Positions 15,994 through 36,529 of a stretch of 64,000 nt of DNA are shown here, in pieces; the first letter of the stretch is position 1, and every line of letters starts with the position of its first letter. The stretch lies in assembly GCF_054482525.1 (NCBI RefSeq), contig NZ_CM137006.1, one strand, 5' to 3'. A program made the position numbers and the translations under genes. The notes below the pieces were generated by a model. That model did no database searches. It saw only the letters and a list, made by a program, of their open reading frames with translations, and was not told the DNA's origin.

Positions 15994-16953
15994 TTAGCGC
16001 GCGTTACGCAGCTTTTGCAAACAACGCTTCAAACCTTCATCCATCGGCGCTTCGATACGCATCACCTCACCGGTCCCCGGATGAGTAAACTTCAACGCTG
16101 CAGCGTGCAGGAACAGGCGATTTAATCCCGTGCCTGCTTCAGTGAGCTGTCTGTCAAATTCACGGTCACCGTAGCGATCGTCAAAGGCAATCGGATGACC
16201 CGCATACTGTGTATGCACACGGATCTGATGAGTACGCCCTGTTACCGGGCTACAACGCACCAGGGTGGCAAAAGCATAGCGTTCTTCCACTTTAAAGCGT
16301 GTTTCCGACGGTTTGCCTTCCTGACTGACACGCACGATACGCTCGCCGCTTTGCAGAATATTTTTCAATAACGGCGCTTGAACGCTCTTCACATGCGACT
16401 GCCACTGACCGCGCACCAGCGCCAGGTAATCTTTTTGCATCCCTTTTTCACGTAATTGCTCATGCAGAGAACGCAACGCCGAGCGTTTTTTCGCTACCAG
16501 CAACACACCTGAAGTGTCCCGGTCGAGACGATGAACCAGTTCAAGGAACCGCGCTTCCGGGCGCAACGCCCGCAAACCTTCGATAACGCCGAAGCTTAAA
16601 CCACTGCCGCCATGTACCGCCGTACCGGAAGGTTTATTCAGCACCAGGATATGGTCATCTTCATATAAGATGACGTCCGCCAGCGCCGCCACCTTTTGCA
16701 GATGTGGCGAAACCGCCTCTTCTTCCCGTTCAGCAACGCGAACCGGTGGGATACGCACCTCATCACCCGCTTCGAGTTTATATTCAGGCTTAATACGTTT
16801 TTTGTTCACCCGCACTTCGCCTTTACGCAAAATACGGTAAATCATACTTTTTGGTACGCCTTTCAATTGGGTACGCAAAAAGTTATCGATACGTTGCCCC
16901 GCTTCGTCAGCGGTGATAGCAACAATTTTTACGGATGGAGTCTCTGTTTTCAT
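15994..16953 (-). CDS. rluC: 23S rRNA pseudouridine synthase C
   Basis: ORF track 319 aa; S4 domain plus RluA-family catalytic region. Confidence 0.93.
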   Translation of the reverse strand: MKTETPSVKIVAITADEAGQRIDNFLRTQLKGVPKSMIYRILRKGEVRVNKKRIKPEYKLEAGDEVRIPPVRVAEREEEAVSPHLQKVAALADVILYEDDHILVLNKPSGTAVHGGSGLSFGVIEGLRALRPEARFLELVHRLDRDTSGVLLVAKKRSALRSLHEQLREKGMQKDYLALVRGQWQSHVKSVQAPLLKNILQSGERIVRVSQEGKPSETRFKVEERYAFATLVRCSPVTGRTHQIRVHTQYAGHPIAFDDRYGDREFDRQLTEAGTGLNRLFLHAAALKFTHPGTGEVMRIEAPMDEGLKRCLQKLRNAR

Positions 16954-17164
16954 GGTGGGCGATTCTAATTAGCCAACAGGATTCGCGCCACTCATTTTTC
17001 TATGCTTATATTTAGTTTTGCACCTTATTACTTCACTACGTGATCACTTTATTGATGGTTATTAAACCAATCACCAGCAAGAAGTGAAAAAACTGTGAGT
17101 AAGCGGGTGATAAATGGTAAAAGTCATCTTGCTATAACAAGGCTTGCAGTGGAATAATGAGGCC

Positions 17165-17525
17165 GTTTCCGTGTCCATCCTTGTTAAAACAAGAAATTTT
17201 ACGGAATAACCCATTTTGCCCGACCGATCATCCACGCAGCAATGGCGTAAGACGTATTGATCTTTCAGGCAGTTAGCGGGCTGCGGGTTGCAGTCCTTAC
17301 CGGTAGATGGAAATATTTCTGGAGAGTAATACCCAGTCTGTTTCTTTGATAATTGCGCTGTTTTTCCGCATGAAAAACGGGCAACCGACACTCTGCGCCT
17401 CTTTGAGCTGACGATAACCGTGAGGTTGGCGACGCGACTAGACACGAGGCCATCGGTTCACACCCGGAAAGGCGTTACTTTGCCCGCAGCTTAGTCGTCA
17501 ATGTAAGAATAATGAGTAAGTTACG
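17165..17525 (+). promoter_or_regulatory. rne long structured 5' leader (RNase E autoregulation); 5' boundary approximate
   Basis: 572-bp non-coding gap upstream of rne; the roughly 360-nt autoregulatory leader is established knowledge; TSS not determined from sequence. Confidence 0.5.
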
Positions 17526-20500
17526 ATGAAAAGAATGTTAATCAACGCAACTCAGCAGGAAGAGTTGCGCGTTGCCCTTGTAGATGGGCAGCGTCTGTAT
17601 GACCTGGATATCGAAAGTCCAGGGCACGAGCAGAAAAAGGCAAACATCTACAAAGGTAAAATCACCCGCATTGAACCGAGTCTGGAAGCTGCTTTTGTTG
17701 ATTACGGCGCTGAACGTCACGGTTTCCTCCCACTAAAAGAAATTGCCCGCGAATATTTCCCTGCTAACTACAGTGCTCATGGTCGTCCCAACATTAAAGA
17801 TGTGTTGCGTGAAGGTCAGGAAGTCATTGTTCAGATCGATAAAGAAGAGCGCGGCAACAAAGGCGCGGCATTAACCACCTTTATCAGTCTGGCGGGTAGC
17901 TATCTGGTTCTGATGCCGAACAACCCGCGCGCGGGTGGCATTTCTCGTCGTATCGAAGGCGACGACCGTACCGAATTAAAAGAAGCACTGGCAAGCCTTG
18001 AACTGCCGGAAGGCATGGGGCTTATCGTGCGCACCGCTGGCGTCGGCAAATCTGCTGAGGCGCTGCAATGGGATTTAAGCTTCCGTCTGAAACACTGGGA
18101 AGCCATCAAAAAAGCCGCTGAAAGCCGCCCAGCTCCGTTCCTGATTCATCAGGAGAGCAACGTCATCGTTCGCGCATTCCGCGATTACTTACGTCAGGAC
18201 ATCGGCGAAATCCTTATCGATAACCCGAAAGTGCTCGAACTGGCACGCCAGCATATCGCTGCATTAGGTCGCCCGGATTTCAGCAGCAAAATCAAACTGT
18301 ACACCGGCGAGATCCCGCTGTTCAGCCACTACCAGATCGAGTCACAGATTGAGTCCGCCTTCCAGCGTGAAGTTCGTCTGCCATCCGGTGGTTCCATTGT
18401 TATCGACAGCACCGAAGCGTTAACCGCCATCGACATCAACTCCGCACGCGCGACCCGCGGCGGCGATATCGAAGAAACCGCGTTTAACACCAACCTCGAA
18501 GCTGCCGATGAGATTGCTCGTCAGCTGCGCCTGCGTGACCTCGGCGGCCTGATTGTTATCGACTTCATCGACATGACGCCAGTACGCCACCAGCGTGCGG
18601 TAGAAAACCGTCTGCGTGAAGCGGTGCGTCAGGACCGTGCGCGTATTCAAATCAGCCATATTTCTCGCTTTGGCCTGCTGGAAATGTCCCGTCAGCGCCT
18701 GAGCCCATCACTGGGTGAATCCAGCCATCACGTCTGCCCGCGCTGCTCCGGTACCGGTACCGTGCGTGACAACGAATCGCTGTCGCTCTCTATTCTGCGT
18801 CTGATCGAAGAAGAAGCGCTGAAAGAGAACACCCAGGAAGTTCACGCCATTGTTCCTGTGCCAATCGCATCTTACCTGCTGAATGAAAAACGTTCTGCAG
18901 TGAATGCGATTGAGACTCGTCAGGACGGTGTGCGCTGTGTGATTGTGCCAAACGATCAGATGGAAACCCCGCACTACCATGTGCTGCGCGTGCGCAAAGG
19001 GGAAGAAACCCCAACCTTAAGCTACATGCTGCCGAAGCTGCATGAAGAAGCGATGGCGCTGCCGTCTGAAGAAGAGTTCGCTGAACGTAAGCGTCCGGAA
19101 CAACCTGCGCTGGCTACCTTTGCCATGCCGGATGTGCCGCCAGCACCAACCCCAGCTGAACCTGCCGCGCCTGTTGTAGCCCCAGCACCTAAAGCTGCAA
19201 CGGCAACACCAGCATCTCCTGCACAACCAGGGTTGTTGAGCCGCTTCTTCGGCGCACTGAAAGCGCTGTTCAGCGGTGGTGAAGAAACCAAACCGACCGA
19301 GCAACCAGCACCGAAAGCAGAAGCGAAACCGGAACGTCAACAGGATCGTCGCAAGCCTCGTCAGAACAACCGCCGTGACCGTAATGAGCGCCGCGATACC
19401 CGTAGTGAACGTACTGAAGGCAGCGATAATCGCGAAGAAAACCGTCGTAATCGTCGCCAGGCTCAGCAGCAAACTGCCGAGACGCGTGAGAGCCGTCAGC
19501 AGGCTGAGGTAACGGAAAAAGCGCGTACCACCGACGAGCAGCAAGCGCCGCGTCGTGAACGTAGCCGCCGCCGTAACGATGATAAACGTCAGGCGCAACA
19601 AGAAGCGAAGGCGCTGAATGTTGAAGAGCAATCTGTTCAGGAAACCGAACAGGAAGAACGTGTACGTCCGGTTCAGCCGCGTCGTAAACAGCGTCAGCTC
19701 AATCAGAAAGTGCGTTACGAGCAAAGCGTAGCCGAAGAAGCGGTAGTCGCACCGGTGGTTGAAGAAACTGTCGCTGCCGAACCAATTGTTCAGGAAGCGC
19801 CAGCTCCACGCACAGAACTGGTGAAAGTCCCGCTGCCAGTCGTAGCGCAAGCTGCACCAGAACAGCAAGAAGAGAACAATGCCGATAACCGTGACAACGG
19901 TGGCATGCCGCGTCGTTCTCGCCGCTCGCCTCGTCACCTGCGCGTGAGTGGTCAGCGTCGTCGTCGCTATCGTGACGAGCGTTATCCAACCCAATCGCCA
20001 ATGCCGTTGACCGTAGCGTGCGCATCTCCGGAACTGGCCTCTGGCAAAGTCTGGATCCGCTATCCAATTGTACGTCCGCAAGATGTAAAGGTCGAAGAGC
20101 AGCGCGAACAGGAAGAAGTACAAGTGCAGCCGATGGTGACTGAGGTCCCTGTCGCCGCCGCTGTCGAACCTGTTGTTAGCGCACCGGTTGTTGAAGAAGT
20201 GGCTGAAGTTGTAGAAGCCCCTGTTCAGGTTGCCGAACCGCAACCGGAAGTGGTTGAAACGACGCATCCTGAAGTAATTGCCGCCGCGGTAACTGAACAG
20301 CCGCAGGTGATTACCGAGTCTGATGTTGCCGTAGCCCAGGAAGTTGCAGAACACGCAGAACCGGTGGTTGAACCGCAGGAAGAGACGGCTGATATTGAAG
20401 AAGTTGCCGAAACTGCTGAGGTTGTGGTTGCTGAACCTGAAGTCGTTGCTCAACCTGCCGCGCCAGTCGTCGCTGAAGTCGCAGCAGAAGTTGAAACGGT

Positions 20501-20711
20501 AGCCGCGGTTAAACCTGAGGTCACCGTTGAGCATAACCACGCTACCGCGCCAATGACGCGCGCTCCGGCACCGGAATATGTTCCGGAGGCACCGCGTCAC
20601 AGTGACTGGCAGCGCCCTACTTTTGCCTTCGAAGGTAAAGGTGCTGCAGGTGGTCATACGGCAACGCATCATGCCTCTGCCGCTCCTGCGCGTCCGCAAC
20701 CTGTTGAGTAA
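17526..20711 (+). CDS. rne: Ribonuclease E
   Basis: ORF track 1061 aa; N-terminal S1/catalytic domain, Arg-rich RNA-binding segment, acidic low-complexity C-terminal scaffold. Confidence 0.98.
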
Positions 20712-20730
20712 TAATTAGCTCAAGTAATCA

Positions 20731-20760
20731 AGCCCTGGTAACTGCCAGGGCTTTTTTATT
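20731..20760 (+). terminator. rne intrinsic terminator
   Basis: AGCCCTGG-TAACTGCC-AGGGCT hairpin followed by TTTTTT. Confidence 0.75.
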
Positions 20761-20828
20761 TCATGTTTGAATCAACATATTAAAATTCATCAAATGGCAT
20801 CCTTGCTAACCAACAATGCAAAATAGGC

Positions 20829-20866
20829 AAAAAAAATGCCCGCCCCGGCGATCCCAGAGCGGGCAG
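20829..20866 (-). terminator. flgL intrinsic terminator
   Basis: GC-rich hairpin (GCCCGC...GCGGGC) followed by U8 on the minus strand. Confidence 0.65.
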
Positions 20867-20906
20867 ACAAAACATACCCAGTTTCATGATATGTTTTAAA
20901 GCGAGC

Positions 20907-21860
20907 TTATTTGTTGAGCTGGAAGAGCGACAATCCCTGCATATCGGTAAATGCTTTATACGATGCCTGCAATGCCGTTTGCTGCATGATGTAAGATGAA
21001 ATAGTTGCATTCCAGTCCACATCAACCAGATCGCTCATCTGCTGCGTTTGCCCTAAAGCGCGATCGCTACCTAATGAATCCAGCGACTCCAGTTCGTTCA
21101 GCTGCGTGCCTAATTCCGCGCGAACAGTCAGCACATTGTTCAGCGAGTTTTTCAGTCCGCGGTTGGTTTTATCCAGTGCCGCAGCGGCGGTTTCTTTATC
21201 CGCTTCGCTATCCGCGACCGGCGTTTTCAGGGCTGCGATGGCGCTATCCAGCATGGCAAAAAGATTTGTTTCAGAAGCGCTACCGTCTGGTTCCGCTACC
21301 GCGTTGCTGGTAATACTGTCGAAAATTTTGTCACCCGTGTGCCCTATCACCATCGAACGCGAAGCATCGACCTGTTGTTTAATACTTTCTGCTCCACCGA
21401 CGTATTTCCCTTTCTCTTCGCTAAACGGCGCAGTCTCTGTTTTATAACCGGCAAAAATGTAGCGCCCGTTACCGTCAGTGGTGTTCGCCAGATTCAGCAA
21501 CTGGTCACGAAGCCCCTGAATATCCGTAGCCAGCGAGGCCCGGTCATCGTCACTCAAGGTGCCATTGCTGGCGTAGACAATTTTTTCCTGAGCATTCTGG
21601 ATAGCAGTGGTGACCTGGCTAAGTACACTCTCTTCCAGTGACACTTTTTGAGTGGCGAAAGTACGCGCCAGCGTGTACTGGCTGTTTTGCGCCTGTGCCT
21701 GGGAGAGAACAACAGCTTGTGATGCAGCAATGGGATCATCTGAAGGGTTAACGACTCGCTTACCCGTCGACATCTGTTCGCCGTACTTCATCCATTCTGC
21801 CTGAGAGTTGGTGATGCCGCGCATGTTTTGCTGGTACATCATCTGGGTACTGAAACGCAT
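20907..21860 (-). CDS. flgL: Flagellar hook-filament junction protein 2
   Basis: ORF track 317 aa; flagellin-like N/C termini. Confidence 0.93.
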   Translation of the reverse strand: MRFSTQMMYQQNMRGITNSQAEWMKYGEQMSTGKRVVNPSDDPIAASQAVVLSQAQAQNSQYTLARTFATQKVSLEESVLSQVTTAIQNAQEKIVYASNGTLSDDDRASLATDIQGLRDQLLNLANTTDGNGRYIFAGYKTETAPFSEEKGKYVGGAESIKQQVDASRSMVIGHTGDKIFDSITSNAVAEPDGSASETNLFAMLDSAIAALKTPVADSEADKETAAAALDKTNRGLKNSLNNVLTVRAELGTQLNELESLDSLGSDRALGQTQQMSDLVDVDWNATISSYIMQQTALQASYKAFTDMQGLSLFQLNK

Positions 21861-35051: not shown

Positions 35052-36294
<1,243 letters not shown>

Positions 36295-36529
36295 TCTATA
36301 CCTACTCCTTCCCGTAACGTCTTTAATACGCTGTAAGTATTACTATACCTGCGCAACCAGACCCTGTGAAAAGTCCAGAATGCCATTTTCTGCATTATTC
36401 ACATATTTGATAAAAACTCTCTATCAAAGCGACGTTTTGATAAAAAAATATTGTCCCCGAAGTGATGGGAAAAGTCTTAGCGGCAATGCAGAATAGAAAG
36501 TGCTCATCTTTTATTTCCCGGGAGGGGAA

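Follow-up and report, generated by a model that had tools for sequence, protein, structure and literature searches.

Analysis of the window, a 64,000-nucleotide stretch of DNA, indicates that the long minus-strand open reading frame opposite the 3' half of rne is almost certainly a 'shadow' of that gene, a by-product of its composition that would encode no protein. The ORF (19017..20699, minus strand; 560 aa, 1,683 nt including the stop codon) starts with TTG at 20699 and ends with TAA at 19019-19017, within a stop-to-stop open frame that extends from 20714 down to 19020. A preliminary description of this DNA had called the ORF spurious, and its coordinates and sizes, like those of rne (17526..20711), are exact. 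The window has 36 ORFs of 250 aa or more, and all but three of them match annotated genes. The antisense ORF of rne is the longest of the three exceptions, as had been claimed, the other two being antisense to ptsG (374 aa) and to fabD/fabH (293 aa).

The plus-strand gene is identified by its sequence as rne, encoding ribonuclease E (17526..20711, plus strand; 1061 aa), on the basis of the ORF list and of Pfam. Matches above curated cut-offs include S1 (PF00575, residues 36-117), RNase_E_G (PF10150, residues 121-391, E = 1.1e-98) and RNase_E_G_Thio (PF20833, residues 403-488), and the C terminus matches PNPase_C (PF12111, residues 1022-1058, E = 1.9e-17). Residues 404-411 (CPRCSGTG) fit the Zn-link motif CPxCxGxG, which lies between the catalytic and small domains of RNase E. 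The translation has a long, low-complexity, non-catalytic C-terminal extension (residues 499-1061) with the PNPase-binding microdomain at its end, a feature that sets RNase E apart from RNase G. The gene is 100% identical to the annotated rne of E. coli PCN033 and has 97.7% DNA identity with K-12 b1084, at equal length (1061 aa); rne is annotated in PCN033, K-12 and 18 other E. coli genomes. The synteny is as in E. coli, with rluC/yceQ on one side, flgL on the other and the rne5 5' UTR element upstream. In an Rfam scan of positions 16800-21200, the rne5 leader (17165-17501, 260 bits) was the sole match, with none at FlgO. Near-identity to the characterised K-12 protein suggests endoribonuclease activity and a role in degradosome assembly.

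The C-terminal half of RNase E is strongly biased in composition, with the entropy of 40-aa windows falling to 2.4-3.0 bits as compared to 3.5-3.9 bits in the N-terminal half. Codons 565-582 (19218..19271, plus strand), known in E. coli RNase E as the membrane-anchor segment, hold four of the 15 Leu codons of this half (570, 571, 578 and 581). An Arg-rich segment of net positive charge (residues ~601-720; 19326..19685, plus strand; +5, +3 and +1 per 40 aa), where the AT skew reaches +0.47, precedes an acidic Glu/Val/Ala/Pro segment (residues 881-1000; 20166..20525, plus strand; -9, -12 and -7 per 40 aa, entropy 2.4-3.0 bits). The PNPase-binding microdomain (residues 1022-1058; 20589..20699, plus strand; PF12111) is a conserved sense domain located beneath the 5' end of the antisense ORF. 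The entropy and net-charge windows agree with the earlier view of a low-complexity half that is Arg-rich and then strongly acidic, and the peptides quoted there, including EPQPEVVE, are present in the rne translation. The word 'repetitive' applies to the composition but not to tandem repeats, since Tandem Repeats Finder detected none in the region, and only short dispersed repeats of 12-33 nt are found. This half also evolves fast, with 89% amino-acid identity to E. albertii and 51-70% to other Enterobacteriaceae with many indels, whereas the catalytic half is 96-100% identical over the same comparisons.

The antisense ORF is in codon-for-codon register with rne codons 498-1058, position 20699 being an rne codon position 3 and position 19017 a position 1. 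Due to this register, antisense stops are possible only at the sense codons TTA (Leu), CTA (Leu) and TCA (Ser). The globular catalytic half of rne (codons 1-498; 17526..19019, plus strand; Leu 10.0%, Ser 6.6%) contains 11 such codons, the last of which, TTA of Leu498 (19017-19019), closes the antisense ORF. The low-complexity scaffold half (codons 499-1061; 19020..20708, plus strand) contains none. Upstream of the ORF, the first in-frame stop (TAA, 20715..20717, minus strand) is two codons beyond the rne stop, and the antisense frame thus closes at once where the coding constraint of rne ends.

The composition of the C-terminal half (A 14.7%, E 14.6%, V 11.9%, P 11.2%, R 9.9%) leaves only 2.7% Leu and 3.7% Ser, or 15 Leu and 21 Ser in total; taken together, Leu and Ser drop from 16.6% in the N-terminal half to 6.4% here. 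Relative to window-wide usage, TTA, CTA and TCA are depleted in rne as a whole (11 codons versus 19.1 expected) and in its C-terminal half (0 versus 5.4). With the rne protein fixed, composition-preserving nulls give a median longest open run of 233-296 codons compared to 563 observed, and the probability of a run of at least 563 codons is 0.004 with the codon usage of the window and 0.03 with that of rne itself. The length of the antisense ORF is far beyond that of random sequence. Protein sequence and codon usage reproduce it largely, though not fully, and the remaining tail would come down to luck. The opening had been ascribed to biased codon usage, which does contribute, but amino-acid composition is the chief cause, with codon choice and luck making up the rest. 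Elsewhere, ptsG, with its 374-aa antisense ORF, has one such codon versus 11.9 expected, and in the rne genes of high-GC Pseudomonas the antisense frame is open across all 1055-1099 codons. The C-terminal half of RNase E is a low-complexity scaffold in which Ala, Glu, Val, Pro, Arg and Gln predominate, and in this strain its few Leu and Ser residues are encoded by codons other than TTA, CTA and TCA. The antisense frame therefore remains open between the TTA of Leu498 and a point two codons beyond the stop of rne.

Coding potential clearly separates the two strands. The score per codon is +0.33 for the rne sense frame (real genes: 0.27 +/- 0.09) and -0.215 for the antisense ORF (antisense frames of real genes: -0.12 +/- 0.13). 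This comparison had been set beforehand as the refuting test of the preliminary description, and it favours rne (+0.33 versus -0.22 per codon), with no refutation. The antisense product has no Pfam domain, and its composition (R 15%, F 13%, L 12%, C 4%, W 3%, K 0.4%) looks implausible for a protein.

The two frames also differ in their substitution patterns, with pN/pS values within E. coli of 0.17 (sense) and 0.85 (antisense), and dN/dS values relative to E. albertii of 0.09 and 0.91. In control species pairs with 10-18 stops in the antisense frame, the antisense ratios range from 0.61 to 1.49, which includes the observed 0.85-0.91. Synonymous divergence of the sense frame is not reduced in the overlap, neither within E. 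coli (pS of 0.054 in the overlap and 0.057 outside) nor relative to E. albertii (dS of 0.595 and 0.418, respectively). A comparison of substitutions at codon positions 1 and 2 with nine flanking genes, which stood in for an OLGenie-style site-class test, gave ratios of 43:19 and 94:44 (Fisher p = 1.0). The antisense dN/dS is indistinguishable from that of non-ORF controls, and these comparisons reveal no purifying selection on the antisense frame. An apparent signal of such selection was obtained in a uniform-acceptance simulation, in which the observed antisense dN/dS between E. coli and E. albertii was below 300 of 300 replicates. It was rejected as the outcome of an unrealistic null on account of the BLOSUM-weighted null, the broken-frame species-pair controls and the flanking-gene ratios. 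This calls for methodological caution, as a sense-only simulation that accepts amino-acid changes uniformly generates a false antisense selection signal, which is gone against empirical controls.

Conservation among species and strains does not exceed neutral expectation. E. albertii has five antisense stops, where neutral simulation expects 5.3-5.5, and other Enterobacteriaceae have 2-11 at scattered positions. The E. albertii sequence as query gave about 85.7% identity with every E. coli genome and brought up no intermediate Escherichia taxa. Within E. coli, synonymous alleles that create a stop occur in four of 20 sampled genomes, all of them within the membrane-anchor segment. Exact 99-mer counts of the three truncating alleles, CTA570, TTA571 and CTA581, give a minimum of 229 carriers (119 + 37 + 73) among 5,426 E. 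coli genomes, ATCC 8739 included. With the exception of one strain that has an in-frame deletion, every one of the 20 E. coli sampled keeps the frame open opposite codons 582-1058. Maintenance of the antisense ORF beyond neutral expectation was found neither in E. albertii and other Enterobacteriaceae nor in the E. coli alleles, and its persistence in most E. coli would reflect shared ancestry and the few sites where a stop could arise rather than selection. Of 80 orthologous loci, 78 yielded an rne ORF, and in these the sense frame runs on from the catalytic domain without a break. The verdict of a spurious ORF is upheld, as coding potential, selection, conservation and Pfam all speak against a gene.

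A terminator-like hairpin with a T-run is located directly after the rne stop codon (20730..20753, plus strand). A strong terminator-like hairpin (20837..20865, minus strand; 12 bp, 9 GC, T8) is found at the 3' end of flgL/FlgO and precedes the antisense ORF on the same strand, flgO being annotated at the equivalent K-12 position; this hairpin would be expected to block flgKL read-through into the ORF. A consensus scan, which is weak evidence either way, found no promoter-like site between this terminator (20865-20837) and the ORF, and one weak promoter-like site at chance level (20095-20067). A Shine-Dalgarno-like AGGAG (20687-20683, in the feature 20670..20687, minus strand) is found 10 nt before an ATG at 20672, the start of the database entry P0002 (which begins MMRCRM), and appears to arise by chance where the sense strand encodes Ala-Pro-Ala, as the reverse complement of those codons. 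Literature searches turned up neither a transcript nor a product antisense to rne, the string 'rne' in two papers proving to be part of longer words, and the text of a paper on overlapping genes of E. coli O157:H7 (PMC9927249) makes no mention of rne. From the sequence, neither a transcript nor a protein would be expected from the antisense ORF, although pervasive translation at a low level may occur.

The preliminary description had warned of an annotation pitfall, and public databases bear this out. RefSeq calls rne alone at the locus in 20 of 20 E. coli genomes examined. Antisense fragments have been deposited as predicted proteins, in clusters of 268, 23, 1 and 1 member sequences. Gene-calling software has repeatedly taken the antisense ORF for a gene. 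In a homology search, the antisense product matched nothing but antisense translations of rne, and such matches say nothing about function. Another entry, P0004 ('ribonuclease E, partial'), is a fold-back chimera composed of rne nt 1-1728 forward followed by nt 2218-1652 reversed, with a 13-nt overlap at a perfect 13-nt inverted repeat (left arm CCGCTTCTTCGGC, 19241..19253, at the chimera junction; right arm GCCGAAGAAGCGG, 19731..19743). It is because the antisense frame is open that this assembly chimera was translated and deposited under that name. The strain with the in-frame deletion, GN4738, has naturally lost 203 rne codons and its rne is annotated at 858 aa; the junction has a 13-nt overlap, and the ends of the deletion correspond to copies 1 and 3 of a direct repeat (CGCACCGGTGGTTGAAGAA, 19748..19766, left end; AGAACCGGTGGTTGAACCG, 20357..20375, right end; both plus strand).

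Three other explanations of the minus-strand ORF were considered. That it is the real gene, the annotated 3' half of rne being a mis-extension, has nothing but its length in its favour and no credible chance of being correct. This reading is refuted by the PNPase-binding domain at the extreme sense C terminus (PF12111, E = 1.9e-17), by purifying selection on the sense frame (dN/dS 0.09-0.17) and by the coding score of this frame, which moreover follows on unbroken from the catalytic domain wherever an rne ORF was recovered (78 of 80 loci). Alternatively, the ORF might be a young, E. coli-restricted antisense overlapping gene or proto-gene translated at some level, similar to olg1/olg2 of Pseudomonas aeruginosa. 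Its length, an outlier at 0.4-3% under the composition-preserving nulls, the stretch opposite codons 582-1058 that is open in sampled E. coli, the AGGAG 10 nt before ATG 20672, and the precedent of translated frame -1 antisense ORFs of 957 and 1536-1728 nt (PMC8850804) are compatible with such a gene. Against it are the negative coding potential and implausible product composition, sense synonymous rates that are not lowered in the overlap, an antisense dN/dS like that of non-ORF controls, stops arising at the neutral rate in E. albertii and truncating alleles in at least 229 of 5,426 genomes. The terminator upstream, a promoter signal no better than chance, the silence on rne in the text of PMC9927249 and database homologues that are only antisense translations of rne point the same way. 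We consider such a gene highly improbable, and give an equally slim chance to the narrower proposal that the stretch opposite codons 582-1058 could be a species-restricted proto-gene, occasionally transcribed and translated. If true, this would be a proto-gene of ~1.4-1.7 kb, among the longest bacterial antisense overlapping genes, inside an essential and intensively studied gene.

The open antisense frame might also be a side effect of sense-strand selection against the rare or slow codons TTA, CTA and TCA in the 3' half of rne, acting on translation or mRNA stability. The deficit of these codons in the gene (11 versus 19.1) and in its C-terminal half (0 versus 5.4), and the same kind of depletion in ptsG (1 versus 11.9), would fit such an avoidance. 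However, nine of the 50 Leu codons in the N-terminal half of this mRNA are TTA or CTA, so that there is no strong bias in the gene. In addition, E. albertii accommodates five codons of this set in the corresponding region, E. coli lineages have retained CTA and TTA alleles, and P is just 0.03 with rne's own codon usage. Codon avoidance seems very unlikely as the explanation, and a shadow of rne composition is the reading that we retain.

Long antisense non-stop frames resulting from sense codon usage were reportedly described by Merino et al. in 1994 and by Silke in 1997. The rne antisense ORF resembles frame -1 shadow ORFs in its codon-for-codon register, in being open since sense TTA, CTA and TCA are absent, in having no independent coding signal, and in a length that tracks codon and amino-acid bias, as seen for ptsG in the window and for the whole-gene opening in high-GC Pseudomonas rne. 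It differs from them in that its driver is the extreme composition of a disordered segment (Leu+Ser 6.4%) rather than high expression or high GC, and in that its length falls in the upper tail of the composition prediction (P = 0.004-0.03). The C-terminal scaffold of RNase E is the non-catalytic half that assembles the degradosome, and the one encoded here, with its membrane anchor, Arg-rich segments, acidic region and PNPase-binding C terminus, shows no difference of substance from that of E. coli; it is the same domain, of strain PCN033. Frame -1 'shadow' ORFs have been presented as long antisense non-stop frames arising from sense codon usage (Mir et al. 2012, PMC3454372). For olg1/olg2 of P. 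aeruginosa, transcription, ribosome-profiling and mass-spectrometry support and signs of purifying selection have been reported (PMC8850804), as have transcription, ribosome-profiling support and signs of purifying selection for antisense overlapping genes of E. coli O157:H7 (PMC9927249). Like olg1/olg2, the rne antisense ORF is long and lies inside an annotated 'mother' gene, olg1 also being in frame -1 and the 1,683 nt being close to the 1536-1728 nt of olg2. Unlike these and the O157:H7 genes, it is negative in all sequence-based tests (selection, conservation and coding potential).

Taken together, this is an ordinary finding of a kind already known. The rne gene with its disordered C-terminal scaffold is textbook knowledge, and descriptions of long frame -1 antisense ORFs that result from sense-strand bias go back to the 1990s. 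The finding carries little biological weight, and its practical value lies in annotation quality control, the locus offering a clear-cut and well-controlled case of a shadow ORF that has demonstrably leaked into public protein collections.

Opposite the C-terminal half of rne (17526..20711, plus strand, 1061 aa), a minus-strand reading frame with a TTG start stays open over 19017..20699 (560 aa, 1683 nt including the stop), matching the coordinates and size of the preliminary description. The window contains 36 ORFs of 250 aa or longer, all except three of which correspond to annotated genes of the reference record, and the frame opposite rne is indeed the longest non-genic ORF, ahead of those opposite ptsG (374 aa) and fabD/fabH (293 aa). 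Within rne codons, 20699 falls on a third and 19017 on a first position; the two frames are therefore antisense codon for codon, and antisense stops can arise only from sense TTA, CTA or TCA codons. There are 11 of these in rne codons 1-498 and none in codons 499-1061. The ORF is terminated by the last of the 11, the TTA of Leu498, and upstream the frame is closed at 20717-20715, two codons past the rne stop, so that it exactly matches the low-complexity half of the gene.

The rne region is 100% identical to that of E. coli PCN033 and was found in 5,425 of 5,426 complete E. coli genomes; in 20 of 20 genomes examined, rne is the sole RefSeq annotation across the interval. The single genome labelled E. 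coli without a megablast match to rne is probably mis-assigned or an aberrant assembly, and the occurrence of rne on five records labelled as plasmids in the E. coli collection probably reflects replicon mislabelling. The plus-strand product shows the Pfam domains S1 and RNase_E_G, the thioredoxin-like small domain and the PNPase-binding C terminus. Its C-terminal half has a local entropy of 2.4-3.0 bits versus 3.5-3.9 bits in the N-terminal half, with an Arg-rich, net-positive stretch at residues 601-720 or thereabouts and, downstream, a strongly acidic Glu/Val/Ala/Pro segment at residues 881-1000 (net charge -7 to -12 per 40 residues). Both peptides quoted earlier, EPQPEVVE and a 14-residue one, are present in the translation. 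Repeats in the DNA of the region are short and dispersed only, and Tandem Repeats Finder detected no tandem repeats there. In the clinical urine isolate E. coli GN4738, 203 rne codons (about 743-949) are naturally lost in frame, leaving a protein of 858 aa. This deletion, equivalent to window ~19751-20359, is flanked by two short direct-repeat copies sharing ACCGGTGGTTGAA, and presumably removes the second Arg-rich RNA-binding segment and the enolase-binding site of RNase E.

Comparison with the RefSeq PCN033 record reveals an IS1 copy (56788-57554) disrupting csgC, with InsA and InsB ORFs, 23-bp terminal inverted repeats and a 10-bp target duplication, CTCTGCATAG. It is missing from that record, which elsewhere is 99.9-100% identical to the window; the window thus represents a derivative or a slightly altered version of the PCN033 genome. 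Within window 1-40896, the two sequences also differ in 4 gap positions. In the yceH region (35100-36500), a 4-nt offset in ORF coordinates sets in between yceM and mdtH, where RefSeq flags yceH as frameshifted.

The preliminary description had attributed the open frame to biased codon usage. The frame does lack stops, but amino-acid composition counts for more than codon bias alone. Across the region's 69 other annotated genes, TTA, CTA and TCA make up 2.8% of codons, so that about 16 would be expected in a typical stretch of 563 codons; the composition of the rne C-terminal half reduces this to 5.4. Leu and Ser (15 and 21 residues) represent 6.4% of this half, compared with 16.6% of the catalytic half, and none of these residues uses a stop-generating codon. 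When the protein sequence was fixed and synonymous codons were redrawn, the longest open run had a median of 233 codons under window usage and 296 under the usage of rne itself, and the observed 563 was attained in 0.44% and 3.0% of replicates, respectively. Most of the ORF length is therefore accounted for by composition, with a modest tail event supplying the remainder. The effect recurs in other genes: the entire rne (1055-1099 codons) of high-GC Pseudomonas species is antisense-open. A second shadow ORF, an open frame arising from sense-strand bias, is the plus-strand ORF codon-aligned with ptsG (2595-3719), where the driver is codon bias and not composition: ptsG has 1 stop-generating codon versus 11.9 expected. 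The third unannotated ORF lies antisense across the fabD/fabH junction (11650-12531, plus strand). A 124-aa minus-strand ORF (17071-17445) over the structured rne5 leader, an Rfam element upstream of rne (17165-17501, rne 5' UTR), may be another shadow ORF; its K-12 counterpart is yceQ (DUF2655, 106 aa), omitted in the PCN033 RefSeq annotation.

With a codon model trained on 69 neighbouring genes, the rne frame scores +0.33 log2-odds per codon (real genes 0.27 +/- 0.09) and the antisense ORF -0.215 (aligned antisense frames of real genes -0.12 +/- 0.13); coding potential, the test on which the spurious reading had been staked, thus favours rne. The predicted antisense product contains 15% Arg, 13% Phe, 12% Leu, 4% Cys, 3% Trp and 0.4% Lys, and a Pfam search with it returned no domain. 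Upstream of the ORF, a strong terminator-like hairpin on the minus strand (20865-20837, 12 bp plus T8) closes the flgL/FlgO transcript. The flgL 3' UTR (~20830-20907, minus strand) is the counterpart of the K-12 small RNA gene flgO (b4826), and Rfam gave no match for that region. Over 18800-21100, promoter-like sites are no more frequent than chance predicts (1 site against 0.9 expected), with none between the hairpin and the ORF. An SD-like AGGAG 10 nt upstream of the ATG at 20672 is the complement of Ala-Pro-Ala codons and is regarded as coincidental. Literature searches yielded no report of an antisense product from rne.

A rival reading takes the frame for a young proto-gene specific to E. 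coli. The rne ORF was recovered in 78 of 80 orthologous loci. In E. albertii, the closest species, the C-terminal half carries five antisense stops, each one nucleotide away from the E. coli codon, and the longest run is 242 codons; neutral evolution of the E. coli sequence to the same divergence gained 5.3-5.5 stops in simulation. Relatives in Citrobacter, Enterobacter, Klebsiella and Superficieibacter have 2-11, at scattered, mostly species-specific positions. Within E. coli, synonymous Leu changes create antisense stops in 4 of 20 sampled genomes: CTA581 in two, TTA571 in one, and CTA570 with TTA571 in one. Exact 99-mer counts place these haplotypes in at least 119, at least 37 and at least 73 of 5,426 genomes, ATCC 8739 among them. 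Strain 405, which also has the CTA581 allele, carries a TacA antitoxin/GNAT-family toxin module (locus L092 of that strain, 3545-4329) in the rne-flgL spacer, window ~20712-20906.

Comparison among E. coli genomes gives a sense pN/pS of 0.00 for the catalytic and 0.17 for the C-terminal half, and a ratio of 0.85 for the antisense frame; sense synonymous diversity is the same in and out of the overlap (0.054 vs 0.057). Relative to E. albertii, dN/dS is 0.09 for the sense and 0.91 for the antisense frame, and dS is higher within the overlap (0.595) than outside (0.418). A simple sense-only simulation gave antisense ratios of about 1.5-1.6, the observed 0.91 lying under all 300 replicates, as purifying selection on the antisense frame would predict. 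That explanation is rejected: BLOSUM62-weighted acceptance lowers the expected ratio to 1.1-1.2, and control species pairs, whose antisense frames cannot be a gene since the rne C-terminal half holds 10-18 antisense stops, range from 0.61 to 1.49. First- versus second-position changes number 43:19, a ratio equal to the 94:44 of nine flanking genes at the same divergence (Fisher p = 1.0). The apparent signal is a null-model defect, and nothing points to constraint on the antisense frame. A young proto-gene specific to E. coli is extremely improbable.

The annotation pitfall anticipated earlier is already realised in public data. Among 5.8 billion predicted proteins, the antisense product matched five entries. 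Two of them, P0001 (416 aa, with 268 members) and P0003 (343 aa, with 23), are gene-call fragments from metagenome assemblies. P0002 (391 aa) derives from a genome at NCBI whose frame-hopping rne is broken by 11 indels, a disruption that led the gene caller to pick the antisense ORF. P0005 (407 aa, 38% identity) lies on a metagenome contig; the full-length rne homologue there extends past the end of the contig, and two antisense ORFs were called instead. P0004, a 760-aa entry with 7 member sequences that NCBI and UniRef list as 'ribonuclease E, partial', joins RNase E residues 1-576 to antisense-frame translation. Its source (L095, 6001-8282; GCA_001621075.1, contig LVRK01000076.1) is at a contig end, and the fold-back point is a perfect 13-nt inverted repeat in rne (19241-19253 / 19731-19743). 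P0004 is a fold-back assembly chimera, which the open antisense frame allows to be translated without a stop.

Long frame -1 antisense ORFs, arising mainly from codon usage, were reportedly described by Merino et al. in 1994 and Silke in 1997. Such ORFs have since been modelled by Mir et al. (2012; PMC3454372). The ORF opposite rne shares with these shadow ORFs the codon-for-codon antisense register, closure at the gene boundary and the lack of a coding signal or selection of its own, and most of its length follows from the sense sequence. What sets it apart is its driver, the amino-acid make-up of a disordered stretch of the protein. Long antisense genes with experimental support are known from P. 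aeruginosa, namely olg1 and olg2 (957 and 1536-1728 nt; PMC8850804). In contrast to these, the ORF opposite rne fails the sequence-based tests of selection, conservation and coding potential; rne goes unmentioned in the text of the overlapping-gene paper on E. coli O157:H7. Taken together, the observation of the antisense ORF is confirmed and its interpretation as spurious supported, with two refinements, the role of composition and a pitfall that has already materialised; the ORF itself is ordinary, of an already known kind.
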